DNA of 61,893 nt, the filler included, from Dugesia japonica (taxonomy: Eukaryota): the NCBI GenBank assembly GCA_001938525.1. It is 6 parts of 6 records of this genome, joined end to end, with 100 filler letters (N's around TTAATTAATTAA, not from the genome) between each part and the next. Parts side by side here need not be neighbours in the genome. Positions count along the whole stretch, not along the records: positions 15,620 to 24,879 come from MQRL01587939.1; 5 more parts are not named here. One strand, written 5' to 3'. The notes below the pieces were generated by a model. The model saw nothing but the letters and a program-made list of their open reading frames with translations, ran no database searches and was not told the origin of the DNA. The position numbers and the translations under genes were made by a program. This document shows positions 12,804-52,005 of this stretch, piece after piece; position 1 is the stretch's first letter, and each line of letters begins with the position of its first letter.

Positions 12804-12894
12804 CAATCTCTAAAAAACAATAAAAAATTTTTTTGATCGAGGCTTTTATTTTAAAAGGATTATAAATATTTATTTATCTTAAAATTGAACCATA

Positions 12895-13530
12895 TCGTCA
12901 GTCTTTTCAAAATAAAAGAAATTAATTTTGCCTTCAAATCCTCTAGTTGACGACAATACACGTCAGCGTTAAAGGTTTTATTGACATGTAGAGATTCATA
13001 ATAGATTATACCTTCAGAATCCCACCAAATTGAAAGTAAAACGTTTTTTGGATGCAACCCAGCTTTATATTGGCGAATACGCGAATCGATAGGCATTATC
13101 TTGCACTTAATATTTTTACAAATGATTCATTTTTTGTCACATGTGATTAGTCTTTTAAAAATTGAACGTCCTTATTTAGTTTTAAGTGCAAATTACCAGC
13201 AGAAATGCGCTCATTAATGTTTTGCTTCTGTCAAACTTTAAGGTACCATAGTTTTATAACAAGAAATATANNNNNNNNNNNNNNNNNNNNNNNCGTCATA
13301 TGTCTGGCTTAATTTTAGGATCTCTGATATCTCTCGAATTGTTCTGCATTGTCATTTTTGAATTAAGCTCATTATAAATTTATCATTGACTGTCTGTGGC
13401 CGTCCTGTGCGATCTGAGTCTTTGAAGGAAAAATTTCCAGCTTTAAATTTTGGAAACCCCATTTTAAAATTGTGATCGGTCACAGCATCCTCTCTATTAG
13501 TTACACATATTTCCCTTTGTGTTTTACCAC
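12895..13530 (-). pseudogene. Mariner (Mos1/SETMAR-like) transposase remnant
   Basis: HTH region FKAGNFSFKDSDRTGRP, LKRLITCDKK (ITGDEKW-like), GLHPKNVLLSIWWDSEGIIYYE...ADVYCRQL. Confidence 0.85.
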
Positions 13531-14200
13531 AAGAGTCTAGTGTTGTTATTAACTTGTCGTGAATTGTTTTCACATTCACAGCTTCCAACTCAACCAAGTC
13601 AACGAATAAAGATGAACAAAATTCATTAGTTTCCGCTTTTAAAAACCGGATTTAACTGGTATATTTGATGTTTCATCAGTTATTATATCAAATTTTAAAT
13701 GTTTTTTGAATACGTTACCAAAAACGGTTTTTCTAATTTCTCTTGCAATATTTTCGATTATTTGATTTGTTAAAAAAAGTGAATGTAACCCAATCCCTAA
13801 GTCAGCGCTATTTTTGATGTGCAGTTCAACTTCATGTTCCATATCAGATAATGAACGGTTTCTTTTTGCTAAAATGTACATGATGTTAAAAGTTTTACAT
13901 GTTTTATTTATCATATNTTGTTCATTTTATCAATACTTTTAGGAATGGCATCTATTTTAGCTGTTTCGCGGTTCTCAACAAGCAATAAATGAGATTTTAA
14001 ACTGAAATGTTTGCACAATTTTTTAATCAATGAAACTTGATGAAAAACTTAGATTTGTTCAAATGAAACAACGGCAGAATTTTGTCATTTTTCTGAAATA
14101 TGGATGGTTTTATTCTTGTTTATCTGTAGAGAACTGAAATTAGCGCAGTATGGCCACCTGAGTTTTTTCTGCTTCACTATAAGATCATGATATTTTCTTT
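13530..14200 (-). pseudogene. hAT (ZNF862/C17orf113-like) transposase remnant
   Basis: FNIMYILAKRNRSLSD...ELHIKNSADLG...IIENIAREIRK...FDIITDETS...FVDLVELE. Confidence 0.75.
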
Positions 14201-15519: not shown

Positions 15520-15619
15520 NNNNNNNNNNNNNNNNNNNNNNNNNNNNNNNNNNNNNNNNNNNNTTAATTAATTAANNNNNNNNNNNNNNNNNNNNNNNNN
15601 NNNNNNNNNNNNNNNNNNN
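15520..15619. other. Artificial scaffold spacer N-TTAATTAATTAA-N (also 24880-24979, 35470-35569, 44016-44115, 53375-53473)
   Basis: Identical 12-mer, with stops in all six frames, centred in ~100-bp N runs five times. Confidence 0.95.
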
Positions 15620-16244
15620 AAAAAAATTTTTAGTTCAAAAAAAATTAATTTTATAATTTTGTGTGAAATTAATTCATTTTTGAATGAATTTAAAAAAATT
15701 TAAAAAAAATAAAAAAGAAATTTATAAAAAATAACATGTATTTAAAATAACATAAAATATATTTATAAAAAAAACACAAAATAAAATTTTTAAAAATTTG
15801 CAAAAAAATTACAAAAATTTAAAATTAAAAATTTCTAAATATAATATATCTAAAATTATTATAATCTAGTTATAAAAGTTATTCTAGTTATTCTAGTATA
15901 AATCCCCAAACTCTTGAAGTGATAACTTAAGTTCATTGAAAAAGTCTTTACAACATTTAATATAATTTAAATATGGAAAAACATATCATTATCATCAATA
16001 TTACATTTACATTCATTTATTGGGTAATATGTATTATTTAATTGTATTTGAATACTTTTAAGAGAAGGTTTTGTTGTAGCTTCTTTTTCTACAGCTGGAG
16101 TCCCTTCTTTTTTCTTTTCAGTTTTACTAATTTGTTGGATAAATAAATTATTATTCTTTTGATAAGAAATATCTTCATNNNNNNNNNNNNNNNNNNNNNN
16201 NNNNNNNNNNNNNNNNNNNNNNNNNNNNNNNNNNNNNNNNNNNN

Positions 16245-17079
16245 TTTCCAGAATCTAAAGTTGTACTTGAAGTAATTCTATTTAAAAATGAAACTTGGAT
16301 AGATTTATTTGTATAAATTCTTTCCAACAGATTTACTTCAATTTTTGGTAGTAAAATACATGCTGGTATATGTAATTCTAAAGTTGTTAATTTTAAAGTT
16401 TCTGTTTTACCTGTATCACCATAAAATAATAATTTATCATCAATTTGTCTCTTACCTATAAATTCAATTTTTGTATTATATAATAATCTATTGTAACATT
16501 GCATAAATCCCAATAAATGTTTTAAAGGAAAACAACCCACAAATTTCTTTTTTGAGTTATAAAGTTTATTTCTATTATAAAAACCTTTATTTCCTTCACA
16601 AGTAACATCTAAATCTCCTTTGTTTGTGTCTGGAATCCATCCAGATGATTCACCATAAATATTTTTATAATTTGAAGCAGTTTTTTATAAAATTTAATAT
16701 TGTTGATGTTATTCCAGGATCATGAATTATTTCTACATCTGAAGATCCCAAAGTTAATCTCATTGTTTTGATTACACTTGGAAACCAATTATTTTCCAAA
16801 GTTATTTTATCTCCATCTGTAACAGTTATCTCTACTNNNNNNNNNNNNNNNNNNNNNNNNNNNNNNNNNNNNNNNNNNNNNNNNNNTTGGAAACCAATTA
16901 TTTTCCAAAGTTATTTTATCTCCATCTGTAACAGTTATCTCTACTATATAATATAAGATTAAATTAGAAATATCTAATGGATTTGATGATTGTAAAGATT
17001 GAAAAACTATATCTCCATAAGACATTAAATGATTAATTGAACCAGATGAAGGTGAAATTCTTAAAACATCATTTTTCAA
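16245..17079 (-). pseudogene. Polinton/adintovirus double jelly-roll major capsid protein, type 1 (fragment)
   Basis: Joined across a gap and a frameshift: ITLENNWFP...QMRLTLGSSDVEIIHDPGITSTI...GWIPD...GFYNR...FPLKHLLGFMQCYNRLLYNTKIEF...LELHIP. PLKHLxGF is typical of Polinton MCP. Confidence 0.75.
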
Positions 17080-18459
17080 AAATAAATGTTGAAAATTAAT
17101 ATCACTATCAAGATCAAGTTTTGTATCAATTATATAAAATAATATATAATTATTATTATATATAATAATTATATATAATAAAAAAAATAATAAAATAATT
17201 TATTTAGAGTTTGAAGTTTTTACTACATAATTTGGTAAATCACTTTTAGCTGCATAAACTCTTTTTACATCATATCCATATTCTTCTGGTACTTTTTCTC
17301 GGGTAAATCTTTCTCGTAAATTATCACTATTTTCTTTTATTTTTTTAGCAATATAATTACATTATCATCTTCTTCCCATTTTATCAATGTCAGTTTCAAA
17401 CCAGGATATTCTATAAATTTCGGTTTTTGTTCTAGATTTAATTGTTCTCTTAATTTATTACATTCATCTCTTTCCTTTTGAAAATCTCTTTCCAATTGTT
17501 TTATAATTTTAACATTTTTGCATCTTCTTTAGAACAATGAGTTATTAATTTCCCTTTGCATTCTGCTTCACAATATTTAGAAACTATAATACTTAATAAT
17601 GTTTTGAACTTATCATTATCATTAAATTTTTCAANTTGTAAATACATTTCTTTCAACATACCTAAATATCTTTTTGCTGTTTTATTTGTCATTTCATAAT
17701 TGGTAAATTTTTCAATTTCACTAATACTAAAATTTTCAAGTTAAGAAAATTTATTTATACTAGCATATAAAGTATTTATACCCAAAACTTCTTCTACTTT
17801 ATTAACATTTGGTTTTGTACTAGACATTTACTTTACTGAAAAAATGATATTATAATTTCTTTCGAATAGTATCTTCAACAACTTTTAGAAAATCTGAATC
17901 ACTCATTTTATGATAATTTATTTTAGGATTTTGAATGGGACTGGTTGGGATTTGATTTTGAATTGGTTTCATGGGATTTTGATTTTGAACTAATCTAATA
18001 AGATTTTGGATTATTTTATTTTGTGTTTGATTTTGCAACCGTTTATATCTTTGTTTTAAGATTCATATTGACCATTTACATCTCTTTTTAAAGTTTTAAT
18101 CTTTGTTCTTCTATTATAAAGAATATTAAATTCCCTTAAATATTTTCTACTGTTTTTTCACTACAGTTATTTTGTTTAGAAAAGCCCAAAACTGAATTTT
18201 CAATAAAATTATAACTTTTTAAGAGTTTAAAAAATTCTGCTTCAGGTGTATCTAATTTATTTGTGTTTTTATTACAAGACATTTTATAAATAATAATTTT
18301 AACACCATACTGTAATTCTATACTCTAATTCTATACTCTACTCTAATTCTATACTTTTATTCCATACTGAAATATTAATAATAAAAAACTACTATTTTAT
18401 TCTAATATTATATTTTTTAAAAACTCAAAATACAAAAAATCAAGACGAAAAGAAATATA

Positions 18460-18646: not shown

Positions 18647-19083
18647 CTAAGAGAACATTTCTCAGAATCAAGCTGGAAAATCATCAATATCTGATCCGAA
18701 AAATGCGGCACAAACTTCGCACTCATTTAATCATGTTCGAACGGAAGTAAAAATTAATCCCATTGGACATTTTATACAAAGAACAATCGGTGGAAAAGAA
18801 AGAAGATCTGCCGTATGCAAAAAGAAATGCAAGAAAACAATGATCAGAATATAATTTAGAACTTCATGTTTATTATATTAAAGAATGGCACAATTAAATT
18901 TTACTATTAAATATGTATTTTTTTACACACCATATGCCATGATCCCATTTGGCAACATTTATAAAAAATAACTTTTTATAGGGATAAAGAGGTTTATCGT
19001 TAAAATATTTTTCCAAACTTATTTTTAAGTAAAAAAGAACACATCACAAAAAACGGAAAAAAATCTGGCAAGTAACGGGTTAA
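18647..19083 (+). mobile_element. piggyBac 3' end: C-terminal Cys-rich domain remnant and right terminus
   Basis: GHFIQRT...ERRSAVCKKK...NLELHVYYIKEWHN* (degenerate CRD), then a terminus ending ACGGG followed by TTAA at 19080-19083. Confidence 0.7.
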
Positions 19084-20997: not shown

Positions 20998-22377
20998 AAC
21001 TTTCTAGTTTCAAGTCTAGTTGATTTTTTTTTAACAAAATAGTAAGTATATTGTTGAGGTAAAATGACATAGTCTTTTCTTCTGCATATTTAGAAAATCC
21101 ATAAAAAAATAATTGTTCCATTCCATCACAGGAAACCTTTGGGAAACTATATTTTAAAGAATAAATTTATAAAAAGAGCTTATAAATTATTACTTGAATT
21201 CATTGGCTTGGACGCATTTTGAATATTATTTATTAATTTAACGATTTTTTAAAATAATAATTCACACAGATTTTGTGACTTTTGAAAATATTTTTACACG
21301 TGATTAGGATTAAATGATGTCACTATAAAGAACTGTTAAGGTTAATGGGGCGTAATAAGATGGTTGGACTTACTAGTTTTCGTGTAAGTTACTTATTATC
21401 GTGCCAGTTAATATTAATCGTCTGAGTTACTAGTTTTCGCGTAAATATTTTGGTTGTAAATTTAAAACTTGAAATTTTTATGTGTGAAATTCAAAATTAA
21501 AACCTTTTGGGGGGAAATTTAAAATTTTTGTTATTTTATTTCATTTTTTTTGAAAATTTTCTTGTCGCCAATTTTAAAAATTTTTTCTTTCTCTATCATT
21601 ATTTTTTATCTTTTATATTTTTTATTTTTAAAAAATTAGATTTTAAGTTTCAATGTTATATTTGAATAGGGTTTGTAAATTTGTATACAATGTCATTTAC
21701 AAAAATATTCATGTTGTTTAAAGTTACATGTTATCAGATTTTGGTTTAAGCGGTCTAGTATTGCGAGTTTTTTGTTGAATTTGCATGAATTTTGCTTTGA
21801 ATGAAAGAGGAAGACGGGAGACATGTTATGGTGTAAATGTTTAGTATTTTGTAGGTGATGGTGCCTGTGTGTATATAAAAGTGTATTTTTAAAATTAAAA
21901 TCGCGACAGAATATGTGTCAGGTGATAATTTTTAGGTTCCATTAGTATATTTGAGTTGGCCATCAAAATAAGTTTATAGGTTGCCAAAGGTAACTATGGG
22001 CTAAAATGAATGTGTATTGCATTTATGCTGCTTTTGTGTTGCAAAATGAGTTTCAAGTATAGTTTTTTATGGTTTTATGAGATTAAAAATTAATAAACAT
22101 GTGATTTTAGATGACGTGTGTTTCTCATGTGTTGCATCTGAGTTGCAACCGTATTACAATAATAATATTTTTAGTGTATTTTAATGGTTTTAAAATTCAC
22201 AGGCACGTGATTTATGTGAATCTGTGTTGCATCTATGTTGCAACCCTGTTATAATTATATTTATTTATTACTTATAAAAATTTTTGCAATTAATAAAAAC
22301 TATTTAAATAAAATAAAATAAAGCATTTATTCAAATAAAATTTATTTTCATAACAAATAAAACCTTTATTCTCAAAG

Positions 22378-22972
22378 TTATGCGACATCTTGAGTATATT
22401 TTATTTCAAGATATTGTATGGAACTATGTTTTTGTTGAATGGGAAGTCGAATTGAAGTTCCAAAATAAAATCTTCCATTGTGATATCAATATCTTATACA
22501 TGTTCTGGCTAAAATATAATCCCAATAATCTTCAGAATTCATATCTTTGGTTTCTTCTATGAAATGTGGAATTTTTTCATTGACTATCTGTCTTGCTGAT
22601 TATAAAATAAAAGATATTAAATAAATATACATTAAATAAATTTTTTACGTTTAAAGTTATATTTATATCTTCTTCATTAAACTCTTATTCACCATCCTCA
22701 TTGGGTTTCTGATTATTTTCAATTTTTTACTGATTATCTTCAATTGGTTTCTGATTATCTTCGTTTGGTTTTTGTTGACCACAATCGCAAGTCACTTTTA
22801 TCTTTGGATTATCTAGTATTTGTTCATTAATTGTATTATCTTCTTCTTCTATTATTTCTTCAAGTATTTTTTCATTATCTATGTCTTCAATTATTTTTGT
22901 ATTATCCTGACTTCGAAACATATTTTCACTAGAAAAAGCAGTAATCTCAAAGTAATCTTGAATGGTAGACAT
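22378..22972 (-). pseudogene. Cassette gene B (unknown; acidic N-terminus, one short intron)
   Basis: Exon 1 MSTIQDYFE...; donor at 22648; exon 2 ARQIVNEKIPHFIEETKDMNSEDYWDYIL is homologous to 45344-45565; premature stops. Confidence 0.6.
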
Positions 22973-23199
22973 TTCTTAAAAAAGTGAATTTATTGTGAAA
23001 AGCATGTTCTAGTTATATAATTCAAGTATCCAATCCTATCAATTAAAACAAATAATAACCAATCATAAAACCAATAACTAATCATATCTTTTAAAAGTGG
23101 CAACGTTCAATTGAAACTGACGAATAATAAGTAAGTATGTATTACAACAAGTATATAAGCAGTAGTTTTCATAAAATTAATCACTTTCACAATTCAAAA

Positions 23200-23636
23200 A
23201 TGCAAGAAACTAATTTCAATAAAGATAATGTTACATCAATTAGCTTGGAACTGAAAAAAATTACAGATTTCTATCATCGCATGATGTATTTCCGGAAGAA
23301 TTCAATTATTTTATGACTTAAAAGTATGATTTTTATTTCTTTTTATAAATTAATATTTTCTTTTAGAAACCTGTTATGGTAAAAAGATCAAAATATATTC
23401 TCTTAATATCAGGAATTCGCGAAAAAGATAGGACCATATTTGAAGGTTTCTTATCGATATTTAGCAGAGATATCGAAATCACTGAAACCATTTTCATTAA
23501 TTTTAAAGAACGTGATGGAAACAAGTATGAAGATGAATCAAAATGGATGATTCAGGTGGAGATAAAATTATATAAGAAGTCTATAAATAGTACTTGGATC
23601 ATCTGGAAAATCAAAAACATTGAAAAGAAGAATTAA
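23200..23636 (+). pseudogene. Cassette gene A (unknown, possibly an OB-fold ssDNA-binding protein), 43-bp intron at 23324-23366
   Basis: MQETNFNKDNVTSISLELKKITDFYHRMMYFRKNSII(Y)DLK|KPVMVKRSKYILLISGIREKD...KWMIQVEI...IWKIKNI with one frameshift; TATA-like GTATATAAG at ~23151; homologous to 44526-44942. Confidence 0.65.
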
Positions 23637-24120
23637 ATTTGTTTGTTATTGAACTTAATGTTTATGAAATTAAGTTTTAAAGCGAAAGTTTTAAGATTAA
23701 AATTTTTAAAAAGAAATTTTTAATGGATTGCACAATTTTACCGAAATTATGTTCAATAAATGAACCATCTATGAAAATATAAAAACATCGTTTTGATCTT
23801 TGCAAATAAAAATAAATTTTATTTAAATTAGTTTTTCAAAATATTTGTTTAATATTTTTTTATTTTTTTTAATAAATGTTTTAATATAAATATCTTGTTG
23901 ATTTAAAAAAAATTATAGTTGTTTTAATAAATAAATAAAAACTAAATAATAATAATACATTTATTTTTTATCAATTCATTAGTGGTAACAGAAATAGTCA
24001 TTGTATTTCTTCATTTCAATTTGATACTTTTAAATTTACGTGAAAACTAGTAACTCAGGCGATTACTATTAACTGACACGATAATAAGTAACTTACACTG
24101 TATCTAGTAACCTATACGGT

Positions 24121-24332
24121 TGATGTGAGCGCATTGGATCACTATGTATTATCAAGATACACCCCTTCCCCTTCCCCAGCACACAAAACAATCAATAATT
24201 AATCACTTCAAAATCAGATCAAAAATCGATAATCAATGAGATCAAAAATGAATCAAATTTGAAAATCAATATATCGATCTGAGGCTAGGCAGAGAGCTCG
24301 ATAACTCATAGTGAGCCAGTGCGCTCACATCA
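24121..24332. mobile_element. MITE with ~35-bp TIRs
   Basis: TGATGTGAGCGCATTGGATCACTATG ... CATAGTGAGCCAGTGCGCTCACATCA. Confidence 0.8.
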
Positions 24333-28679: not shown

Positions 28680-31600
28680 CTTTGTTATATTTTAATAGGC
28701 TTATAAGTAATTTTTATACAATTTCAGCGACTTCTATGCAATTTTCAAAACTTTCGGTCGACGTCTATGTAATTTATGAAGTATTTCACCGCATTCTATG
28801 TAATTTATTAAAAATTGCAATGATTTCTATGTAATTTTGGAAATATTTTAACGACATCTAATTAATACAGTTGAAATATCTATGTAAGATAACACACGAA
28901 AGACAATTATGAGAAAGATATATTTAAATCACTGACATGTTCTTTATTACACATTTAAAAATTCAATCAATGTGTCTTCATCAGTCATTTCTTCACCAAT
29001 CATATCCTTATTTGTATTTGTGTCAGACATTACTTTATCAAAATTATCATCATTTGGAGGCATATTAATTATTTTTTCATCAATAATGATATAATTTTCA
29101 GGTATATGAGGTATTTCCTAATCAATAATGACATCATTTGCTTGTGCATCAATCATTTTCTCGGTAATAATAACATTATTTGGTTAAGTATCGTTCATCT
29201 CTTCCTTTGATTTTGCATCTATTTCATCTATTTCTACATCATTTTATGGAAAATCATATATTATTAAATAATTATTTAGATTAATATTAGTTATTATTAC
29301 TTTGAACCGATGAAGTTATATGTTCAATTGTTTATAATTTTATACAAATGCATTACTAATCAGTAGTTAAGTTTATATAAGTCCTTTGTTTATCATATAT
29401 TTTCGTTGCTTAACATGTATTTATGATACACACCTGGATTAATATGTATAAAATTTTAATATTCCCCCGGGAACATTCAATATTCTGTGTTTTATACAAC
29501 TCTATAGGGTTTATAGCGTGTATTATACCATTTGGGTTTACTATGTGTATAAAATCCATTGAGTTTTCTATGTATTAGCCTCATTAAGTTTATTAGGTGT
29601 ATAATACCCATTGATTTCATGTGTGTATAAAGTTCATTAGGTTTTATGTATATAAGATAATATTAGAAAATTTGTATATTTAATTGACTTTATTTGGGTA
29701 TTTGTATGTATATTATATGACTATATTGAATTCATTGTAAGTGTTATATAAATATATTAAGTTTATTGTATGTATTTATTTGTATGTATTAGTTGTATTC
29801 TGTGTATTTAAAAAAGTTTATTTTTTGTGTGTAGTTTATGACTATATTGAGTTAATTGTATGTATTATATGACTGTAGAGTATATTGTGTGTACTTCAAT
29901 GATTTTAATAGGTTAAATATATGTATTATAACGCATTACTTATGCAATTTATGACATTATTTCGTGTTTTATAAGGTATATTATATGTATTATATGAATA
30001 TATAGAGTATTTTCTGTGTATTATATCACTATATTGGGTTAATTGTGTGTAATATATATCTTTATAGATCTTAATGTGTGTATTATAAGAACCTATTGGG
30101 TTTATTGTATGAATCTAGTGACTATATGGTTTATTGTGTATATAATATCCATTGGTTTACTGTGTATAAAACTCAATAGTTTACTGTGTATGAAGCTCTA
30201 TTAAGTTTTGTGATAGACATACACGTATGTTATGTTTAAAAATATTACCTAGACATCTATACTATGTCTGAGAATATAACATAGACATCTATGTTATGTT
30301 TGAAAATATAATATAGACGTATATGCAATTTATGTAAACTTTCATTGACTTCTATGCAATATTTGTGTTATTTTTCCTGTTTTACATAGGAATTTGTAAT
30401 CGTTTGGTGACATATATGTTAAGTTTGACATTATTACATAGACATCTATGNNNNNNNNNNNNNNNNNNNNNNNNNNNNNNNNNNNNNNNNNNNNNNNNNN
30501 NNNNGACATCTATGCAATTTCAAAATATTTCATCAGCAAGCACATATGAAACCCTACAAAACACAATAATAACATATAAAACCCAATAATTCTAAATAAA
30601 ATCTAGTCAAACATTATAAGACCATATAAAACCTTATAATAACCCTATAGTTACCATATAATTACCATATAAACCTTTCAAAACCCTATAATAATATAAA
30701 TGCCATATAATCATCCCATAAAATACAAAAATTATCTTATCAAACCACATAGAAACCATATTGAAGTTAGTATAATATTTTTCATGTAATTTATGAAGAT
30801 TTGTATGAACTTTGTAAATTTTATTAATAAAATGATATATAAATTGTACAGATTAGATGTATTAATAGGTTTTTGAATGTTCTGAATACATTTAATGTAT
30901 AGATTTCTTTGAATTATTTGCGTTCATGTGATGTAATTATTGAATGTATGCTGTTTGTTGTTTATTTGAGTGTATTGGCTGTATTGAATGATTTTCATAA
31001 CTCTAGTAAGTTTTTCAGGAACATTTAGGGACCTTTAGTAACGTTTTTGAAATAATTACCAGAACTCTAGTAACGTTTTGCAAAAATTACTGGATCTCTG
31101 GTAACCTTTTGAAATATTTTAGAGACATCTAGTAACTTTTTGAAAGAATTAACAGATCTCTGGTAACTTTTTATTGAAATATATGTTATTTTAAAACGAT
31201 TGTTTAATTAGCTCATATAAACGCATATAATTACTCTAAAAAACCTATGATTATCTTATAAAATATATATAATTACTATATTAAACTTTATAAAAAGCAT
31301 ATATTTACTCTATAAAAATCTTAAACAACCTATANAAACCATATAAAAAGCAATGTAATAACAAATAAAACCACATAAATGCCCTATAGAAACCTATAAA
31401 ACCCACCAATCATAAAATATCTCTATTAAAACCCTATAATTACCTTATAAAAACCTATAATAACCATATATTTACCTTATAAAAACTTATAGTGACTCTA
31501 TAACTACCTTAGATAACCATATAATAATCATAAAGAAACATATAAATACCTTATAAAACTCTATTAAATCATTCAAAAACCATATTAAAACATATCAACC

Positions 31601-37510: not shown

Positions 37511-38200
37511 AGTAGTGGGTTAATGGCGCACTGTGCTCTTATCTCCGTGATAGAATATTTTTGTGTGTGATTACGTAATCGGGGGAATAATACTGCTATT
37601 TGATTGGTCGAAATGATGTGTGTGTTTATTACGCTATTTTTACGCCACGGTAACGTAACGATTGTGCAATCATTATGTTATAGTTATTGGTGAACTTTTA
37701 TAAATTTTTGGTTAAATGAGGTAGAATTAATTTTTTTTGTTTAAATAAATTGAATTGTTTTATTTTGTTTGAAATAAGTGCAATTATGTATTTTTAAAAT
37801 TAAGTGAAATTAATTATTGGTTGTTTAATTTAAGGAAAATTAACGATTTTTTTGTATTAATTTTGATTTGTATTAATTTTAAGCCGATAAATTTTGAACC
37901 ATATTAATTATAAGTTGCTAAACTTTGATTCATATTAATTTCAAGCTGTTAAATTTTGATTCGTATTAAATTTTAAGCTGTCAAATTTTGATTTGTATTA
38001 ATTTTAAGCCGATAAATTTTGAATCGTATTAATTATAAGTTGCTAAACTTTGATTCATATTAATTTCAAACTGTGAAATTTTGATTCATATTAATTTCAA
38101 ACTGATAAATTTTAATTTGTATTAATTTTAAACTTTTTAATTTGGATTCTTAAGCTGATAAAATTTGATTCTAATTAAATTTTTACTGATAAATTCTTAG
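37511..38200 (+). mobile_element. Polinton-like terminus followed by a ~28-bp tandem minisatellite (37850-38170)
   Basis: Starts AGTAGTGGGTTAATGGCGCAC; unit TTTGATTCATATTAATTTCAAGCTGATAAA repeated roughly ten times. Confidence 0.6.
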
Positions 38201-40894: not shown

Positions 40895-43800
40895 TATTAT
40901 TATAACTCTGCCATTTGGAAATAATTTTCATTGAAAAGAACTGAAAAAGGGACTTGAAAAGCAAAGTTTAATATCTAACTTCTGTGCAAACTCTCTCATA
41001 ATTCTGGATTCAAAAGCTTTTCCACAATCGAGTCTTATTTCTCTTGGAGATCCAAATCTCAATATCCACTTTTCAAAAATAGCTTTGCGTATTTTTTCTT
41101 CGTCTTGTCTAGGTAATGGTATAAGAACCAGATATTTACTGTACTGATTGATTATTCCAAGACTATATTTTTTTCGTCCACTTGTTTCCCGCATTGGCTC
41201 ACATATATCTGAGAATATCACTTCAAATAAATTGGTAGCTTCTAATCTTTTAGTCTTCTCTTTAGTTGCTGTCGTCACTACTTTGATGTTTTGGCTAATT
41301 TCACAACTACGAAGTATTTTATATATTTGGCTCTACAAATTCTTCGCAATGTATTTATTTCTCTCAACTCCTACATGACATAATAATTTGTGTATTTCTT
41401 TTATTGACTCATGTATTTTGTCATCCGAAATTTTAATTTTCTTGATTAAATTTGTTTCCTCAGAAATGTTTAATTGCTCTTTTTTCCTTTTCAATAATGT
41501 TCAGTATTCTTGTTTTAATCTTACCTTTCTTGGCATCTTCATGTGACATTTGACATTTTACACATACCTCACATCTTGGTCTAGTAACATATCTGCATTA
41601 CCATGTTAAATTCCTTTTATATATTCCTAAACCATGTCTAGACTATTCAGATGATTAACCCATGTCTGGAATTGCGACATAATTGATTTCTTCGTCGTCA
41701 TCATGAAGGTTAGAGCTTTATGGTCTGTTCTAAGAGTAAATCTTGTACCGTACAAATAGTGTTTGAAGTGCATGTAGAAATAATAAAAAGCCAATAAGTC
41801 CTTTCGTGTGATCCAATATCCATTTTCATGACTCGTCATTGAGTGTGAACCATAGGCAACAACTCTTTCTCTTCCTTCCTTATCTCCCTGGGACAATACT
41901 GCTCAAATCGTATCAAAACTGGCATCTATATCTAATATAAATTCTTTATTTATGTCCGGAAAACACAATATTGGTGCAGCCATTAGAGATTTCTTCAGAC
42001 CCTCAAAGTATCGTTTATTTCATCTGTCCATTCTAATTTTTTGTTGCTTGGCCCGCTACACGCTGCTCTAAGATCCTTGATTTTCTTGCGTAGTTTTCTA
42101 TAAACTTTCTGTAATAATTACATATTCCTAAGAAACTTCGTAACTTCTTCACACAGTTAGGTTTGCCAAAGGTTCTTATTGCTTCTATTTTAGACGGATC
42201 AGTTCTAACACCATCCCTGCTAATGATGTGTCCAAGAAATTTGATTTCGCTTTGAAGAAACTGACACTTTTCTGGATTAATTTTTTAACCAGCCTTCATT
42301 ATTTCTATTAATACTCTTTCAATGACTTCATAGTGTTGATCTTTATTGTTCGTAAATATCAGGATGTCATCAAGATAAACNNNNNNNNNNNNNNNNNNNN
42401 NNNNNNNNNNNNNNNNNNNNNNNNNNNNNNATGTCATCAAGATAAACCATGGCTCCATTGATTCCGCCTACCACTTTTGTCATCATCTCCTGAAATGTCC
42501 CTGGCATTCTATTAAAACAATATTGTCCATGCTTTGTTGAAAACGCCTTTTTTCTTGAGATTTTTTTTCGAGCTCTACCTGATAGTATTTCCCAAATCTA
42601 TTGAACGAAAATTTTTTACTCCATCTAACTTGTCCAGCATTTCATCGACATTAGGCATAGGAAAAACTTGTCTTTTCGTTACTGCATTCAATTTTCTAAA
42701 ATCCAAACATATTCTTATGTCCTTCTTTTAATTTTTCAAAACACAGATCAGTGGGGTATTCCATGGAGAGTTGTATTTCCGGATAATATTATTCTCGAAA
42801 AGGCTTCTTCAATTTTATATTCTAAGTTCATTGGTTGTCTTTACGGTTTGACATTGATTCGTTCACCATTTGTGATTATTTTGTGTCTTCTCAGATGTGT
42901 GCGTCCTACATCCCATTTATCTGCCATAAAAGCATCTTCTTTACTTCCAATTATTTTCAATAATCGCTTATCCTTATTAATCTTCAAAGTATTTAAGGCT
43001 TTTGTCAATCGCTCTCCTTTTCTTAATTTGTCTTCTAAATTTCGCTTCAATATTTCAAATGTAATTTTCGACTTTTCATTCGTTTTGCTATCAGCCTTTC
43101 GCATAAGCTGGTTTTCAAAAATCTTCTGCATATCTATTTCTCCTATGAGATCTGGTGTTACTCTTTTAGCAACTAAGAAAATAATCTTTTTGAAAACGTA
43201 ATCAATTATCACTCAGGTTCTAACTTTCCCAACAATTTCAAGAGTACTATTATTTGAACAGCGCAAACTTTTCATAACTCATTTCTAAATTTACTTCTCG
43301 TAATTTATTAAAACAACTCAAACTCATCACGGTAATTCGAGCCCCTGTATCTAATAGACATTCTACTTTATTTCCTTGAATTGATAACTCTTGGTCTGCC
43401 TTGTTATTTATGGTACGAAATATTTGTTTTCTGTTCTGTTTCAACTGTTCCAACCCATTCTAATTTTCTATCATCCGCAAAATTTTCCCTCTTTAAGAAC
43501 CTGAATACTTTTTCTGTAACTTTTCCGATATCATCCCATTTTTCGACCCCTTGAGGATAAATACTAACTTCATTTAACAATGGATGGCTGCAACCAACTC
43601 CTCTACTGACGGAGCCCTGCCTTTTGGGTACTGCCTTTCACTTTCATACACTTTTTCATAAAAATTGTTTGTATTGACATCTTCATCTTCAATCGCATGT
43701 ACTAGATTATATCGGTTTCTTGATCTTTCTGCAGTCATAAATTTCTCACTTGTTCTTTTCGTTTTAAAATTTGTGTAGCATTTTTCTGCTCTATGTCCAC

Positions 43801-44015
43801 CATTACCACATCGTTTACACCTCACTTCTTGAATTACCCTTCTAATATGGCCAACCTTTCCACAGCCAAAACATTTTGTTGGTTTTTGTTTGGACAATCT
43901 CAACTTATATGTCCTGTTTTATGACAAGTCCAAATCTCTATCACTTTTTTGGTCGGACAATTTGCTTTAGTATGACCGATCTTATGACATAACCAACATT
44001 CAATATTTTGTTTTT
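40895..44015 (-). mobile_element. Ty3/Gypsy retrotransposon (gag-PR-RT-RH-IN), degenerate and truncated at both ends
   Basis: CCHC knuckles, protease LLDTGA, RT (MVYLDDILIF), RNase H (ILDIDAS, VVAYGSH, LRTDHKAL), integrase (IFSDICEPM, FGSPREIRLDCGKAF). Confidence 0.93.
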
Positions 44016-44525
44016 NNNNNNNNNNNNNNNNNNNNNNNNNNNNNNNNNNNNNNNNNNNNTTAATTAATTAANNNNNNNNNNNNNNNNNNNNNNNNNNNNN
44101 NNNNNNNNNNNNNNNTTTTTTTTATTCACAATTTTAAATTTTAATTTAGATATTATGGCTCTTATTCTTTTCCGAAAGAAAAGAGTCTTAGGAAAAGATG
44201 AAAAGGATTTCGTTTTAACGAAATTCTACAAGGAGATATATCAGAATTCAGCTTGCGAGTGTTTCAGATGTGGATATTCTCTCTTTGAGAATATAATAAA
44301 CAATATTTCATGTTAATAAAATTTAGTTTTAAAAAATTGTTGTTTATTTTGTTTATTTATCTTGTTGTTATTTATTTATCATAAATTTTTTTTATTATTT
44401 TTAAGTTAATTATTTTAAAAGTATTTTACTTTTTATAGTTATTATTCTGAAATAAGTCTGTTTTATATGAAATTAATAAATAAAAAAGAAATAAAATTAA
44501 CAACATTTATTTTTACTAAATAAAT

Positions 44526-44942
44526 TCAATAAATCTCTCGAACTTTCCAAATAGTAAAGGATATTTTTCTGTTTATTGACATAATATTGTCTCCATTTAC
44601 CTTGGTTCCTTGGATTTCCACTTGGATCATATATTTTTCGTTCTTGTCGAATACTNNNNNNNNNNNNNNNNNNNNNNNNNNNNNNNNNNNNNNNNNNNNN
44701 NNNNNNNNNGGTTCTATTCTTTGGAATAATAAATTTAGAATATTTTTATCGTTTGAACTAATATCCGATATTAGTAAACTATACAGGTTCCTAAATGGAA
44801 AGCAATAAATAAAAAATAAAAGAAAAACCTTTACTTGAAACGTATATATTATCGGTCTTTTAAAATATTTCATTTGAATTCCATGAAAATCAGTAGGCTT
44901 TCCATAATCCGCAGTGATGGGCAACACACTATCTTTGTTCAA
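44526..44942 (-). pseudogene. Cassette gene A, diverged homologue; 44-bp intron at 44791-44834
   Basis: NKDSVLPITADYGKPTDFHGIQMKYFKRPIIYTFQ|EPV..YSLLISDISSNDKNIL...KYMIQVEIQG...FTIWKVREI aligns by eye with 23200-23636, with the same phase-0 intron. Confidence 0.65.
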
Positions 44943-45105
44943 TGTAATTATTGGTTGCTTATTAAAATTATGAAAATTTATCGAAGGTTTTCGTTTATAT
45001 ACTCATGGTTGACATGTATGTTTCTTTTTTTTCTATTTTATTGTTTGCTCTTGTGTTAGTATTGTTAATTATCATGTTTTCATTGGTAGTTCTTTGTTTA
45101 ATATT

Positions 45106-45565
45106 ATGATTGCATGCAAAGTGCAAAACGAATGCAAGTTAAANNNNNNNNNNNNNNNNNNNNNNNNNNNNNNNNNNNNNNNNNNNNNNNNNNNNNNNNN
45201 NNNNNNNNNNNNNNNNNNNNNNNNNNNNNNNNNNNNNNNNNNNNNNNNNNNNNNNNNNNNNNNNNNNNNNNNNNNNNNNNNNNNNNNNNNNNNNNNNNNN
45301 NNNNNNNNNNNNNNNNNNNNNNNNNNNNNNNNNNNNNNNNNNNCTTGCAAGAAGAATAATAAATGAATTGTTTTCAGAATGTGAAAGAAAATCAAAAGTG
45401 TTGGAAGAAAAAGAATATTGAGACTATGTTCTGAAAGAAGAGTTGATTGATATCGAGAGGGTTTTATACCTTTTCGAAAGCAAATTTGAAATAATATCAA
45501 TATATGAAACCAATCCATCTCCATACTGGGTAATGCGGACCGTTATTGAGGAAAGATTTCCATAA
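45106..45565 (+). pseudogene. Cassette gene B, diverged homologue (partly in an N gap)
   Basis: LARRIINELFSECERKSKVLEEKEY*DYVL versus ARQIVNEKIPHFIEETKDMNSEDYWDYIL; same head-to-head orientation to gene A. Confidence 0.6.
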
Positions 45566-45754
45566 ATTTTGTTTGTTGTTGATGTCATTTTTATTGTATT
45601 GATGTTGTCTTGTAATTTTATTGATGTTTAATAAATTTTATAACTTGATTTGTTTCTTTTGTTTACTTTAAAAATTAAAAAAATAAAAAAAAATTTTTTA
45701 AAACAAAATTAAAAAAAAAATTTTTAAAACAATATTTAAAAAAATTTTTAAAAA

Positions 45755-45930
45755 AAAACGATGAGTCATCCTAATCTAGAAATTTTCTTTGTCTAAGGGG
45801 GTGGTGCCATGCAGATCTAGAAAAACGATGAGTCATGGTCTTTGTTCTAAGATAAAGGATGACTCGTTGTCTTCGTCGTTATGAGTCATACCTGTGAGTC
45901 ATCGTCTTTGTCTTAGTCATCGATGACATT
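45755..45930. promoter_or_regulatory. Cluster of AP-1-type TGAGTCA motifs in an element-terminal region
   Basis: Perfect TGAGTCA at 45762, 45829, 45882 and 45895, plus near matches. Confidence 0.45.
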
Positions 45931-46807
45931 AAATCAAATATCAATTAATACAAGAACTAGGTTTTACGGAGGCCATGAAAAAAACTCACGAAGACCACAG
46001 GTTCTCTATCTTTGATATAAGGGTTTAAATTTATAGAAATTTTTCATATGGATTCAATTAGTTTTATTGATTTAACTACTCAAACCCCAATGAAGATTTT
46101 CTATAATATTGTGACAGCACTAAACATTGTTGAAATCACTGACATATTAATACCAGAAATAATTTTTCGCACAATAATATTTCAATGAAAATTGCTTTGT
46201 ACAGAGAATAGAACAGGAAAGGTTAGTTCACTGCAAGGTGCATCAAAATATATGCAAAAACTGTGAAAATATCCGATGAATTCCAAACCCTTTTGCGTAT
46301 GTTACACTAAGTTACAAATGCAATGACGAAGACAATAAAACAAATTTAAAGGTAGAAGATTTAGTTGTTCTTGAATACCTTGCTAACGGAAGAAGTTTAA
46401 AGCAAAAATAAATTTTCTGACAAAAATATTTATTCAATTAATAATTTATTATTAAATATTTGAAAAAATTCATTGATTATCTGGAGAATTATTTGAAACA
46501 TGTTAATAATTTGATTTCTGGATGCACGAATTAATATTCAGTAAGATCTTCTAAAAAATTATTAAATGTTTTTATTTGAGTTGATTAGTTTATTAATGAG
46601 ATTAAATCAATCTAAAGCATAAATTGTACAAGCTTATGTATAATTTATTTATAAGTATTCAAATAATATTTCAACCAATCAAATTTAAATAATAAAATAC
46701 ATACAAAACCGAAATTTTGTTAGTATTCTCGCTAAACATAATTTTAAGCGTTACTGAAGATAATAAAATTTTATTTAAAATTTTGCCTTAGCAAAGAAAA
46801 TTAATTT

Positions 46808-47782
46808 ATGATATTTTTTAAATCATTATTATTATCTCTAGCACTTCTTTCAATTTTACTAAAAAATTCATTAAATATAGAAAATGTTATTTCCGAAAAA
46901 AAATTCTGTTCAAGGATAACCACTGATTCATTATTACATTATGGAAGATCGCATCGTTATACCAATAAAATACCGAAAATTATTCATTATGTCTATAAAA
47001 CTATGTATATTCCAACTCAATATTCGCCACACATCAGAAATTGTATGAAAATCAATAAAGATGCAAAATTTGTATTTTGGAGTGATTTTACAGCGTATCG
47101 ATTCATTATAAATCATTTTCAAAATTCTTTAGATTTATACTCGAGCTATTTTAACAAAAATATTGAATTATTAAAAATATCAGATTTGATTAGATATTTT
47201 ATTTTGTATAAATTTGGTGGTATTTACATGGATATGGATACAAAATGTCAAAAANCTTTTGATATTGTTATGATTAATAGTTCGTGTATTTTGAGTCAAG
47301 AAGTCAATGAACAATCTCGAATAATGTGGAATGTGCCTTATTTAGCAATGAACAGTTTAATGGCTTCAACACCGAATCATGATTTTTTGACATATGTCTT
47401 AGGAAAATTAACAAAAGCAGATGGATCGTGGATATTAGGACAAACTGGACCTGTTTTTCTTACTAAAATATTTGAAGCTTATCAGAAATTATTTACAAGC
47501 AATCCTCATTCATTACTACCAGTTACTTTAGCCGACCCATATATGTTTTCACCACACACTGAGAATCATCTTGAAAACCGATGTTCTAAGCTTAGTGGAG
47601 ATTGGAAAATAAAAGGATGTAAGGATTTACCCATGCATAGAAAAATACAAAAGAGCAAGATTAGCGATGCAATTGTAGTCCATCTATTTATGCATTTAGG
47701 ATATAATTTTGCCAAGGGTAATATTAAAGTATTGGATAATTCTTGCTTTGCATTTACAAGCATGTCGATAATCTGGTTATAA
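46808..47782 (+). CDS. GT32-family (DxD) glycosyltransferase, SUR1/CSH1/OCH1-like, type II membrane protein
   Basis: Intact 324-aa single-exon ORF; hydrophobic N-terminal anchor; KIPKIIH, FWSD, SDLIRYFILYKFGGIYMDMD, NSLMASTPNHDFL and TGPVFLT motifs. Confidence 0.92.
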   Translation: MIFFKSLLLSLALLSILLKNSLNIENVISEKKFCSRITTDSLLHYGRSHRYTNKIPKIIHYVYKTMYIPTQYSPHIRNCMKINKDAKFVFWSDFTAYRFIINHFQNSLDLYSSYFNKNIELLKISDLIRYFILYKFGGIYMDMDTKCQKXFDIVMINSSCILSQEVNEQSRIMWNVPYLAMNSLMASTPNHDFLTYVLGKLTKADGSWILGQTGPVFLTKIFEAYQKLFTSNPHSLLPVTLADPYMFSPHTENHLENRCSKLSGDWKIKGCKDLPMHRKIQKSKISDAIVVHLFMHLGYNFAKGNIKVLDNSCFAFTSMSIIWL

Positions 47783-47869
47783 AACAATTGTTGTGCTATT
47801 TAATATTTTTTTAACATTANNNNNNNNNNNNNNNNNNNNNNNNNNNNNNNNNNNNNNNNNNNNNNNNNN

Positions 47870-47934
<65 letters not shown>
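47870..47934. repeat. (TTA)n microsatellite
   Basis: Direct observation. Confidence 0.95.
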
Positions 47935-49163
47935 GTTTATAAAAACTTGGAAAATAAGAATAGTATGTGTTTGAAAACTTTATTTCAATTTTTATTGTAT
48001 GTAATAAAAATGGGTTTATGCTGTACTTTGATGTTTCCAGCTTTTTCGTTAATGTTCCACTGCTGGAAATAATAGGTCTTTGTAATTTTTTGAATTATTC
48101 AGAATCTTCAGAATTATTATAATTGTACACTTATCTAGTTTGTTACAGTTTGTACATAACCAGTCCATAAAGACTAAAGTAATTCTCATATTCACTATTT
48201 TTTATTTCACACTGAATTGTATTAAATGATAATCTGAAATTTATTTATTTAAAACCATAATTAATTTTGTTTTAATTAGCCTTCAGGCAAATTTCACGGG
48301 TTTCCATAAATTTTCGATTATTCCCTTCCAACAAGATTTTCTGAAAAGTTTTCTACGTTATAATAAATAAATTTTAGCTATTTATATTAAATAACAATTA
48401 GTTATTAATTTTGCAAAAATAAACAATTGAAACACAATTTTTTTTGAAACTTTTAGCTTATAATTTTATTAAAATCAAATATAATAAAATTAATTAAATT
48501 ATTTTTATTATTTTTCCTTAAACAAACATAAATATTTTGATATGAAATTCAAGAATATAAAATATTGACCAAATGTTTATTATTTAATATCAATGTTTAA
48601 AATCGATTGATAATTTATCGCAAATTTATTATCGAATATATTATTCATGTTAAAATTATAAACGACCTATTTTAAATCAATCACGAGATTAAATGATAAT
48701 TTATAATCTAAGTATTAAACGTTATCTAATCAAATTGAAAATTATTTCAATTGCATAAAATTTACACAAATAAAATTAAGTAGAAAATGCATAAAACAAA
48801 CGATAATTTATATTTACTATTATTTTTGAATTAACAAATTAATCGCTTACGTAAGTAGGTGAATTCAAAGATTTAGCTTGAATTTAAAATCTCATTGATA
48901 CCTTTAGCAGCCTACAGCGGCATTTAAAGCCTGGCAGGCTTTTACCCCCCTCGAATCAAGAGACAAATAAAATCGCTATCACTCAATCAGAATAATCTTC
49001 ATTTGGTTAGACAAGATAAAAATACATCATAACTCGTTCACTGATCACACCAATGCGCAAACCATTCAAAATCGTCTCAAATGACCACCACCACCCTTTT
49101 GTTTGATGACAATTTTTTTTAATCGATTTATTTCTTGTTTTTTTTATCAAGTACTATTTTTGT

Positions 49164-49826
49164 TTATACCAATGGTTTGTAAACTGTTATTCCTTCCGAA
49201 TTGAAAATATCTGTTTTTACTCGTTCATTATCATGACTTTGTTGGGTAAAATCAATAAATAAATATTCATGTAGTTTTGTAGTAACATCGTGAAATGCAT
49301 CTGATAAAAATTCTTTATCTTGTGGAAATGCTTGACGGGAATTATAGTAAACCACGGTTTGATCTCGTAGATATTTGAATAAAACCGAATAATGGACATT
49401 TAGATTACGTGAACGATGCATACTGCTTTGATGAAAAAGATTTGGGTGATAAAGATGACAGTTACATTACCATAACGAGCAGTTTTTGGAGCGATTATTA
49501 AAATCAGCCTGCTTATTTGCCTCTTGAAACAAGTCATCGATTACAATGACATCACCAGTATTTAGTCTCTTTAACCAATCATCATCGAATTCATCAATTA
49601 TCGTATTCTTTCTTAACTTGCAAAATTGACCATTAGTCAGGCCAGCTTCAACTCCACCACCTTGATGCCAATAAATATGTTTGAACTTTTTCGGAAAGAA
49701 TTTGCTTTGTAGTAATTGGCAAACAAATAATGTTTTGCCGCTTACACTGGGACCGACTATTTGAAAAACCGTGTTGTTTTGTAGTACAATTTTACAGAAA
49801 TCATAGAAGTGATTAATTTTATACAA
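49164..49826 (-). pseudogene. Polinton A32/FtsK-like genome-packaging ATPase (frameshifted)
   Basis: Walker A IVGPSVSGKT, Walker B VIVIDDL, then FITQNLF, SRNLNVHYSVLFK, YLFIDF. Confidence 0.88.
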
Positions 49827-50339
49827 AAAGAGTATATAAGCCCATGATTATTGCTCATTCGTCATTAAACAATGTTATGAAATATTAATTACAGAGCTCA
49901 TCTAATTGATTCACTTTCAGATCTTCAATTTAATACATGGAAGTAACCCCGACAGTATGTAGTGAAAATGAATGATTATTCAGTAATTGTTTTTGAATAG
50001 GGAAAATTTAGAATAATGTGATGCAAAAAACCAATCAAGGATGAACAAATTAATTGCAAAAAATATCAAAATCCAAATAGATGGTATTTAATCAACTACT
50101 GTAACATGTGATCATGGACAAGTGGTGAATTTATATAAATTGAGCAGTGTATTAGATTGTTGGCTTGAACCAAAATTATTTCCTGCATTATCGGCTATAA
50201 ACAAGAGGGAACGACTAGATGGAACCATCTTCGCAAAATTAGCATGTATGCCGGAAAAACTAAATTATCGCTTTTTTACCTTAATATTCTACAGGTTGTT
50301 GTTGGAAGCTCAATCGTTGAAGAAATATACCCAAAAGAT

Positions 50340-51190
50340 TCTATAACCGGGTAGGTTTGACAACAAATTGAATTCAATATTATTGGTTCAGATAATGATT
50401 ACTTGGATTTGAATGATACGTTGCTCATTATAAAAATGAAGACGGTAAAACATGATGAAACGGACTTTGTATCAACTGATACTACCAACATGATTCCTTC
50501 CAATTATTTGCTTCACACTCAATTCAAAGAAGCATCATTAACACTAAATAATGTAAAGGTTAAAAATACAAATTATACGTTTATGCAGAAGGTGGTAATT
50601 GAAGCCCCTTTAAAGTTTGGATCGGATACAAAAAACACTTTTCTTGAAGCTGTTGGTTATCATAAAGAAGATGACAAGAGAAAAGGTTGGATTAAAACGT
50701 CTGCAGAGCTAACGCTCTGTGGTGCACTTAATTTAGATTTCTTTGACCAACAAAAGTATTTGTTGCTGGGAGTCAATGTTACAAATAAATTGACGAGAAA
50801 TATGGGTTCGATAATTTACAAATATAATAAAGACGTTAAGAACCAGTTGAAATGAATCCAAAACCGTACATAATAGATGCAAAATTGGTAGTGCAACGTG
50901 TTTGTGTTGATCAGTCGGTTATGATTGGACATCAAAATGCAATCTACCCTTTCCAGAAAACAAAAATCGTGAATTTTACAATTCCAAAAAACTCACATGA
51001 GGAATATAAAGATAATTTCTTTTCTGATGAATGATTACCGAAATTTGTTTTGATTGCTTTCCAATCTTCAAAACAAGCAAGTTGTGATTATGGCTTATTT
51101 TGTTCGACATTCTCAAATTTCAGTGTAAAGTCAATATGCTTGCCGAGAAACGTTGATTATCGAGAAACATACTACTGACTTTGATACCAA
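50340..51190 (+). pseudogene. Polinton/adintovirus major capsid protein, type 2
   Basis: IEFNIIGSDNDYLDLNDTLL...NYLLHTQF...LTLNN...LCGALNLDFFDQQKYLLLGVNV...IIDAKLVVQRV...AIYPF...LPKFVLIAF. Confidence 0.8.
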
Positions 51191-52005
51191 CTAAAGAATC
51201 TGGGCAAACCATTCATGTTGTTTAAATAATATGATAATTTTAAAATTTTTTGGGAATCTGAGAACAGTCTAAATTTTTGAAAAAATATGTTCTATCTCTC
51301 AGATTTCAAAGAATTTTGTACCAAACTGCTGAAAAATTTACGGTGAACATTTTTCACAAAAAAACTTTTCGAAAAAACATTTTCTTCTCAAATAGCCCAA
51401 CAAAGTTTCTATTCAATAGAGAAGGTTTTGATGATTCCAAATATATTAACGTAAAATCGTCAAACTTAAAAATCGATGAAATAAATGAGTTTTTGTGATG
51501 AAAAAAATGACAAAACGGATCTCAGTGCGCTGATGATAGCTATCGACTCAAATTTGATATTATTTTTGTCAGGAGGAAAAAGTGACTGTACAAATTTAAT
51601 ATATTGTCTCGGAAAAAATGTTTCCTAACGAATATGTACAGCCGCTCGCCCGGATTTGGTGACATTTCTCGAAAATATCAAAAGTACCTCAAAATTTATC
51701 GGAATTGATACTATCAGACTGGAAATGTTATGGTGAATACGAATAAAATGGTTAATAGTCAACTAACTTTATACATAAAAAAGTTATATAAAAAAACAAG
51801 TGCTTTATTCGAGAATCCATGAGGAACATTAAAAATAATAAAAACATACTTTAAAAACTAAATAATAAGATAAAGTCATTTTATAAGGTAAAAGATTTAT
51901 TTAATAAAAATCCGATCAATCTGTCTGTTGTTTAAACATTAACCTGTTTGAAAATACTGAAAAATTAATTAATTAATTAATTTAAATTTAATAAATAACA
52001 AATCA

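Follow-up and report, generated by a model that had tools for sequence, protein, structure and literature searches.

A decayed pair of spliced genes between inverted repeats in Dugesia japonica, possibly left by a DNA virus that integrates or by a virus-like transposon

A divergent gene pair within a 2.7-kb inverted-repeat unit

Computational analysis of a 61,893-nt stretch of the Dugesia japonica genome (assembly GCA_001938525.1; hereafter the window) was centred on a 2.7-kb unit at 21370-24110, in which 77-bp inverted repeats enclose two small divergent genes, designated gene A and gene B, and on a second occurrence of the same pair at 44.5-45.6 kb. The pair inside the unit is termed copy 1 and the other copy 2. 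The window joins six contigs, and adjacency across the five 100-nt spacers (44 N, TTAATTAATTAA, 44 N) that start at 15520, 24880, 35470, 44016 and 53375 is not genomic; copy 1 lies on the contig at 15620-24879, copy 2 on that at 44116-53374, and a motif at 37511/37518, taken up below, on a third. The features of the two copies are as follows, P0008 and P0009 being database relatives of gene A.

21370..21446, plus strand: left inverted repeat, with two copies of an 18-nt unit (21370-21387 and 21427-21444)
21447..22377, no strand assigned: G/T-skewed spacer with a 37-nt direct repeat (22128-22164 and 22223-22259); six frames without a protein family match
22378..22596, minus strand: gene B exon 2, broken, its first 34 codons being conserved in copy 2 as well
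22597..22648, minus strand: probable gene B intron, inferred in copy 1 only; donor at 22648, acceptor out of phase with the conserved frame
22649..22972, minus strand: acidic exon 1 of gene B; tandem repeats of 21 and 27 nt, two in-frame stops
22973..23199, no strand assigned: divergent promoter region; TATATAA at 23152-23158 faces gene A and is kept in copy 2
23200..23323, plus strand: exon 1 of gene A, whose frame breaks near codon 38-39, with a stop at 23314-23316
23324..23366, plus strand: gene A intron, 43 nt, GT-AG, at the same position in copy 2, P0008 and P0009
23367..23636, plus strand: gene A exon 2, stop at 23636
24034..24110, minus strand: right inverted repeat
44526..44960, minus strand, other contig: gene A of copy 2, intron 44834-44791; no in-frame ATG, a frame break after the acceptor and a 54-N gap
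45344..45565, plus strand: gene B exon 2 of copy 2, with a single in-frame stop; a 200-N gap (45144-45343) takes the place of exon 1

The inverted repeats described in an earlier note on this DNA are real: their arms are identical at 69/77 nt, the inner 65 nt at 61/65, each arm carries the 18-nt unit twice, and the unit measures 2741 bp with the repeats included. In agreement with its description as transposase-less, the unit contains no transposase-like frame, and family scans of its frames recovered no pPolB (protein-primed polymerase), integrase, capsid, ATPase, protease or helicase frame between the repeats; Rfam gave 0 matches. The repeats match nothing else in the window, which leaves one repeat-bounded copy within 62 kb, and their arms fold no better than shuffled sequences (z -1.26 and -0.09).

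The two frames diverge as had been proposed, gene B on the minus strand from an ATG at 22972 and gene A on the plus strand from an ATG at 23200, and the reported intergenic region of ~230 bp with a TATA-like box proved to be 227 bp long, its box having a counterpart at 45001-44994 in copy 2. The proposed recurrence of this head-to-head pair is borne out by matching geometry and by three exon comparisons between the copies, none of whose scores was reached in 3000 shuffles: gene A exon 1 (score 54, shuffle maximum 37), gene A exon 2 (55 against 45) and the first 34 residues of gene B exon 2 (55 against 51). For each of these exon queries copy 2 was the top match among 1164 frame-chunks of the window. 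The likeness in gene B is confined to those 34 residues, whereas the score of the remainder of exon 2 was reached by 445/3000 shuffles. The claim that copy 2 is recognisable at the protein level only has to be relaxed, for BLASTN misses copy 2, yet in a local DNA alignment the TATA boxes, the first exons and the introns of the two copies still fall into register. As to the intron assigned to each gene, that of gene A is seen at the same place in both copies (GT-AG, 43 and 44 nt), whereas that of gene B is seen in one copy only; its assignment to phase 0 in gene A keeps the shared position, but with 124 nt from ATG to donor in copy 1 the phase holds only across the frame break.

Gene A of the two copies is 34% identical. 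Across 126 aligned codons, identity by codon position is 0.56/0.63/0.38, with saturated synonymous differences (pS 0.78) and a nonsynonymous proportion (pN) of 0.41, in an alignment guided by protein similarity, which itself favours such a result. With that bias in mind, the codon pattern fits long purifying selection on the pair, in line with the view of an old module that was once under selection.

The genes had been taken as intact, but all four are broken and are pseudogenes. In copy 1, gene A has an in-frame stop at 23314-23316, and gene B has two in-frame stops (22729-22727 and 22687-22685). The gene B frame also breaks after YWDYIL, and at the expected place none of the canonical acceptors would be in phase with the frame of the conserved ARQIVNE. 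Divergence of 3-5% per repeat arm predicts 1.4-2.4 nonsense changes in the 918 coding nt of copy 1, and 2 to 3 are observed; since the count lies close to the prediction, it is probable that copy 1 still had whole genes while its repeats were identical, and that the later decay was neutral. A ciliate-type code as an explanation of the gene B stops was set aside by reasoning, since gene A and a 325-codon glycosyltransferase frame elsewhere in the window end in TAA and need no recoding.

Copy 2 is without the 77-bp repeats and has N gaps and other small decayed frames beside it. One of these frames, at 44149-44316 (plus strand), is a spliced-looking last exon with a CxCxxC motif that converges on gene A of copy 2, and another, at 46048-46410 (plus strand), is a broken frame with His/Cys residues beyond gene B; neither has a Pfam match. 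A cluster of TGAGTCA repeats at 45754-45930, 190 bp past gene B, forms a strong hairpin (z -3.06, 0/200 shuffles) and is a possible origin or set of subterminal repeats. Owing to the missing repeats, the flanking decayed frames and the hairpin, copy 2 looks like part of a larger element.

Relatives and predicted fold of the gene A family

Gene A had been regarded as an orphan. Contrary to this, 14 database relatives were found, all of them unnamed where names are shown. Of 1.84 billion representatives, a profile of the two window copies retrieved 11 (E 2e-9 to 9e-4), and a second search matched 9/1172 candidates, six of them already in the query alignment and three new. With gene A exon 2 as a single query, a word-indexed search gave 3 candidates and 0 matches, and Atlas and Pfam gave nothing. 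Ten of the 14 relatives start near the start of exon 2; P0008 and P0009 read exon 1 into an intron-like tail that begins at the same place as the intron of copy 2, and P0004 and P0010 span the junction unspliced. It can be presumed that the first twelve are prokaryote-style gene calls on spliced genes. A profile of 12 database rows, not fully independent because those rows had been found with the window profile, recovers the two window copies at E 2.5e-18 and 1.2e-15, with nothing else below 0.18.

Identity to database relatives reaches 63% for copy 2 (with P0001) and 43% for copy 1 (with P0011), while the two copies are less alike, and for this reason they would represent separate lineages in one genome, as in families of mobile elements. 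P0004, at 25-28% identity to the window copies, lies on a 17,960-bp contig and eight other relatives on contigs of 0.5-2.8 kb; 8/9 relatives listed with sources are single-member clusters and none of the nine is named. A tree of 13 rows, from which P0005, P0008 and P0009 were left out, has 1/10 inner branches well supported, places copy 2 with P0001 at 81/84 and leaves copy 1 unplaced; it was not used as evidence. In P0009 the C-terminal end of exon 2 is directly followed by a gene A-family exon 1, an arrangement suggesting that another sample has tandem copies or a circular molecule.

Named families gave no counterpart at the sequence level. No Pfam, NCBIfam or PDB sequence match to the gene A family was obtained, 0/11 alignment members matched Pfam DUF2738, DUF2815 or Pox_I3, and tblastn against phage genomes found no relative of gene A. 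The best shared PHROGs family, phrog_38213, is unnamed and occurs in 4/14 members (E 0.0012). Two PDB sequence hits to the family profile (E 0.17 and 0.27) are designed helical proteins and were discarded, as was a GTDB locus, 1 of 52 candidates with P0004, which is a false positive inside a bacterial amidohydrolase-like frame.

The fold was modelled for P0004, an intact relative, from a 14-row alignment, with a pLDDT (local confidence) of 87.5 and a pTM (global confidence) of 0.76. Among 48,161 representative chains four reached Z of at least 5, the next being at 4.9; rmsd denotes root-mean-square deviation.

T7 gp2.5: Z 7.1, rmsd 2.9, 103 residues aligned
DUF2815: Z 6.9, rmsd 2.7, 99 residues aligned
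African swine fever virus (ASFV) CP312R: Z 6.8, rmsd 3.5, 113 residues aligned
Enc34 protein that binds single-stranded DNA (SSB): Z 6.7, rmsd 3.1, 101 residues aligned

When the 1000 best Foldseek chains were re-aligned, the group of gp2.5, Enc34, DUF2815 and CP312R took ranks 1-8 (Z 6.1-7.1; next 4.6), and cellular SSBs scored lower (Rim1 Z 4.2, RPA at most 3.8). In the Foldseek search of the PDB, ranks 1-7 belong to the gp2.5-type family, Enc34 SSB and DUF2815 coming first (E 0.055-0.15). A library of viral models gave 22 matches to P0004 at E<=0.001 (best 1.5e-6), the named ones being uncharacterised giant-virus proteins, and most of the Atlas neighbours at 0.93 are clusters from Nucleocytoviricota, with rows of Pox_I3 (12% of members) and DUF2738 (10%) at 0.88 serving as a lead only. 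No single score is strong, and it is the agreement on one family from which the assignment follows: the gene A family very probably has a gp2.5-type OB (oligonucleotide-binding) fold. Judging from this model, its members may bind single-stranded DNA.

Set against the T7 gp2.5-like SSBs (1je5; Enc34 5odj-5odl; DUF2815 4klk, 4jg2; CP312R 8hw5, 7yeq; nucleocytovirus DUF2738 proteins), the OB fold of the model can be aligned along 99-113 residues (rmsd 2.7-3.6, Z 6.1-7.1), and conserved aromatic and basic residues lie likewise on the last two strands. Unlike these proteins, the gene A family has ~120-130 residues against 166-274, shares 3-11% identity with them and is split by a spliceosomal intron. 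The acidic C-terminal tail that gp2.5 carries is not seen in the gene A family sequences examined. T7-like SSBs are described in PMC4889955 as virus-specific, found in phages and in giant viruses and lacking close homologues in cells, and the match of gene A to this fold type upholds the virus-like origin proposed earlier.

For gene B, PDB sequence matches stayed at E>=0.14, Pfam and NCBIfam gave nothing above cut-off, and 0/7 rows of the comparison with viral structures reached E<=0.001. Because its first half is acidic and repeat-rich and its promoter is common with gene A, gene B is suggested to be a partner in the same process.

Boundaries of the unit and remnants in the window

The earlier note had set a 6-bp target-site duplication as the mark of a Polinton integrase. 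Among 7,560 boundary pairs (72 x 105) there was no 5-8 bp duplication with well-matched ends. A lost duplication could be hidden by decay or by loss of the outer ends. The 7-bp direct repeat TCACTAT (21320-21326 and 24139-24145) was considered as a target duplication and rejected, as its ends match at 2/10 and one or two such repeats are expected in that number of pairs by a hand estimate. No AG-repeat end occurs at the repeat boundary. The partial terminal motif that had been noticed at ~21341 and compared with 37518 is a 9-mer starting at 21340, 30 bp outside the left repeat, within an 11/12-nt match to the other contig; the alignment does not extend, and the chance that any 9-mer of that terminus would lie near either end is ~0.015, a post hoc figure that makes the match mildly unlikely. 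The flanks read TTAA-GGTTA at 21336-21344 on the left and TATA-GGTTA at 24116-24108 on the right, offset by ~28 bp, which we take to resemble Kolobok ends (TTAA duplication, purine-purine ends), a poor fit.

The window is A+T-rich (G+C 16-38% per kb) and packed with decayed Gypsy-type, mariner, MULE (Mutator-like) and Polinton remnants. Polinton protein remnants, located by Pfam-type scan and self-comparison, occur on 4/6 contigs:

15967-18324, minus strand, same contig as copy 1: head-to-tail decayed frames including the capsid domain below
16247-16684, same contig as copy 1: double-jelly-roll capsid domain (PF21738, E 2.5e-8)
26.1-26.7 kb: pPolB-like pieces, from self-comparison
49470-49847: A32-like ATPase remnant, below the Pfam cut-off
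52699-52887: pPolB remnant, below the Pfam cut-off
58033-58284: adenovirus-type protease remnant, below the Pfam cut-off

Each of the two copies shares its contig with such remnants, N gaps and microsatellites intervening. As the remnants are present on 4/6 contigs, their co-occurrence with both pairs is weak evidence and the link to Polintons circumstantial. The proximity of Polinton fragments on which the earlier note drew is mostly artificial, copy 1, copy 2 and the 37518 motif being on three contigs, and the Polinton dependence that it suggested is not shown.

Further elements were seen around these features. A 212-bp unit resembling a miniature inverted-repeat transposable element (24121-24332; inverted repeats of 26-36 nt, 92% over 26) starts 10 bp past the right repeat, with no target duplication seen, and its arms are loosely like the AGTAGT-led end at 37511. 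That end opens a G+C-richer stretch at 37511-38200, followed by 31-bp tandem repeats on its own contig, which we presume to resemble a Polinton end. Between the capsid remnant and the copy 1 unit, a Cys-rich stretch at 18650-19000 (plus strand) presumably resembles the C-terminal end of a piggyBac transposase; Pfam gave no match. An acidic decayed frame at 28950-29250 (minus strand), ending in a possible donor between 31-bp tandem arrays, has a character like that of gene B exon 1; phmmer gave nothing significant and no gene A neighbour was found. Gypsy-type remnants on different contigs (41917-44014 and 55118-57208) are 74-90% alike, a MULE transposase lies at 59060-59719 and mariner pieces at 12863-13651. 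An intronless 325-codon DXD glycosyltransferase frame (46805-47782, plus strand; PF04488, E 1e-14) with an N-terminal hydrophobic anchor stands open amid decayed elements and is probably a host gene.

Origin of the unit and its significance

The 2.7-kb unit is read here as the dead and shortened remains of a eukaryotic DNA virus that integrates, or of a virus-like transposon, at the grade of Polintons or Polinton-like viruses (PLVs), a reading to which we give a probability of about 0.5. The parent would have carried a two-gene cassette transcribed in opposite directions from one short promoter and expressed by the host nucleus, as the TATA box and spliceosomal introns suggest. The product of gene A would be a small gp2.5-type OB-fold protein coating single-stranded DNA exposed while the element is copied or recombines, and that of gene B its co-regulated partner, acidic in the N-terminal half and helical in the C-terminal domain, which most likely took part in the same replication step. 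The inverted repeats may be the element ends or subterminal repeats needed in cis, and the unit would have entered its site with working genes, copied by enzymes of a full-length relative, before it decayed. The 17,960-bp contig on which P0004 lies unspliced is of Polinton/PLV size. As far as the accessible parts of these sources go, Maverick core genes are intronless and cargo by the left repeat bears introns (10.1101/2022.07.12.499685); group 2 Polintons have variable replication modules and swap replication genes for helicase-primases, an SSB not being named (10.64898/2026.06.19.733378); and DUF2738 is marked in a PLV genome map legend (10.1101/2022.07.28.501842).

Several observations weigh against this reading. 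In addition to the missing target-site duplication, the 77-bp repeats fall short of the 100-1500 bp that 10.1101/2023.08.22.554363 states for Polintons, which are 13-25 kb long and have 5-8 bp target duplications, and no capsid, polymerase or integrase gene is contiguous with copy 1 or copy 2. The search for gene B relatives gave 1 candidate and 0 matches at lengths of 18-126, a range that leaves full-length unspliced forms outside, and the gene B model is poor (all-helical, pLDDT 56.8). As to the scores for the gene A fold, top values of Z ~7 are common in that search, the lowest Foldseek E in the PDB is 0.055 and the Atlas recognition of 1826 is below the mark of 2300; the fold was predicted for P0004 rather than for the window copies themselves, and where the family has a near-invariant glycine in its GYKK motif, copy 1 differs. 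According to PMC4889955, the SSBs of protein-primed replicons have no relation to OB folds, which speaks against a classical pPolB Polinton; PMC8276246 makes the protein-primed exception likewise and records a divergent OB-like SSB in Bam35.

The unit could instead be a mini-satellite family in its own right, consisting of ends, an SSB gene and a partner gene and borrowing polymerase and integrase from a helper Polinton or virus, and we hold this as a tentative possibility. The unit has its two repeats and its two genes and no other coding sequence in between, the decay matches the repeat divergence so that the genes were probably whole at insertion, the pair geometry is kept across a saturated synonymous distance, and the 9-mer outside the left repeat is common with the 37518 end. 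Against a family, which the earlier suggestion of a mini-element would imply, the repeat-bounded copy in the window is single, copy 2 lacks these repeats and is flanked by small decayed frames as in a larger element, and the target-site duplication is missing here too. The notion of a hitherto undescribed class of tiny, enzyme-free, repeat-bounded nuclear satellites of ~2.7 kb, dependent on integrating DNA viruses and drawing helper replication machinery to their own ends through a spliced SSB and its partner, is considered unlikely.

It is likewise doubtful that the pair comes from a larger endogenous genome of nucleocytovirus-like type (a mriyavirus or small Megaviricetes grade), captured or flanked by an unrelated cut-and-paste transposon that supplied the repeats. 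The nearest structural and feature neighbours are giant-virus proteins, and T7-like SSBs are encoded by mriyaviruses (PMC11253617, where they are placed in gamadviruses) and by ariadnaviruses (10.64898/2026.08.29.747986). Against it, no core gene (VLTF2/3, HUH endonuclease, nucleocytovirus capsid) was found among the 143 window frames scanned, on decayed contigs of 8-15 kb; the TTAA and TATA flanks differ at 2/4 positions with ends offset as given above, and gene and repeat decay fits one common age. That the pair stems from the host's own genes, namely an SSB family of viral ancestry that was domesticated and whose window copies are pseudogenes with incidental repeats, appears very improbable: short canonical introns and a TATA box are as in host genes and the intron position is common with proteins from other samples, but 2/2 copies are broken, none of the nine sourced relatives is named and nearly all are single-member clusters, and the divergence between the copies exceeds that to outside relatives.

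With the fossil of a Polinton- or PLV-grade element as the preferred reading, the unit can be placed beside known systems. Polintons/Mavericks (Polintoviricetes, especially group 2) are alike in their terminal inverted repeats, left remnants in this window, and have intron-bearing cargo by the repeats and variable replication modules; unlike an autonomous Polinton, the 2741-bp unit lacks pPolB, integrase, capsid, ATPase, protease and a target-site duplication and has 77-bp repeats. The term SSB occurs 0 times in the available text of the Polinton papers PMC11071308, PMC8502044, PMC5499653 and PMC11296320. PLVs and mriyaviruses (Gamadviridae) are small eukaryotic DNA viruses with terminal repeats that encode DUF2738 or a T7-like SSB, but they are capsid-encoding protist viruses of 15-45 kb, whereas only a spliced, broken two-gene cassette is found here. 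Transpovirons, which PMC5499653 derives from PLVs by gene loss, are alike in being small and linear, with inverted repeats at their termini, no capsid and a divergent gene pair; they differ in being mimivirus parasites of ~7 kb with a superfamily 1 helicase and a Zn-ribbon, while the present unit has no helicase frame and its genes are spliced. By analogy, the locus may resemble a gp2.5-type replication accessory cassette in its working. In the literature searched, whose supplementary gene tables could list one, no paper describing a spliced gene of the gp2.5 type in a transposon or Polinton was found.

Overall, the locus in its present state is a fossil. A compact, intron-split T7-like SSB family in a repeat-bounded nuclear element would add a missing replication component to Polinton-grade elements, and would show that a viral gene gained an intron and kept it across lineages. 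If many 2.7-kb copies exist, they would constitute a new kind of satellite, and were the satellite interpretation true, it would mean a transpoviron-like lifestyle in a nuclear genome, with synonymous sites saturated between lineages and an intron shared across hosts. A profile of the gene A family would also help to find the parent elements.

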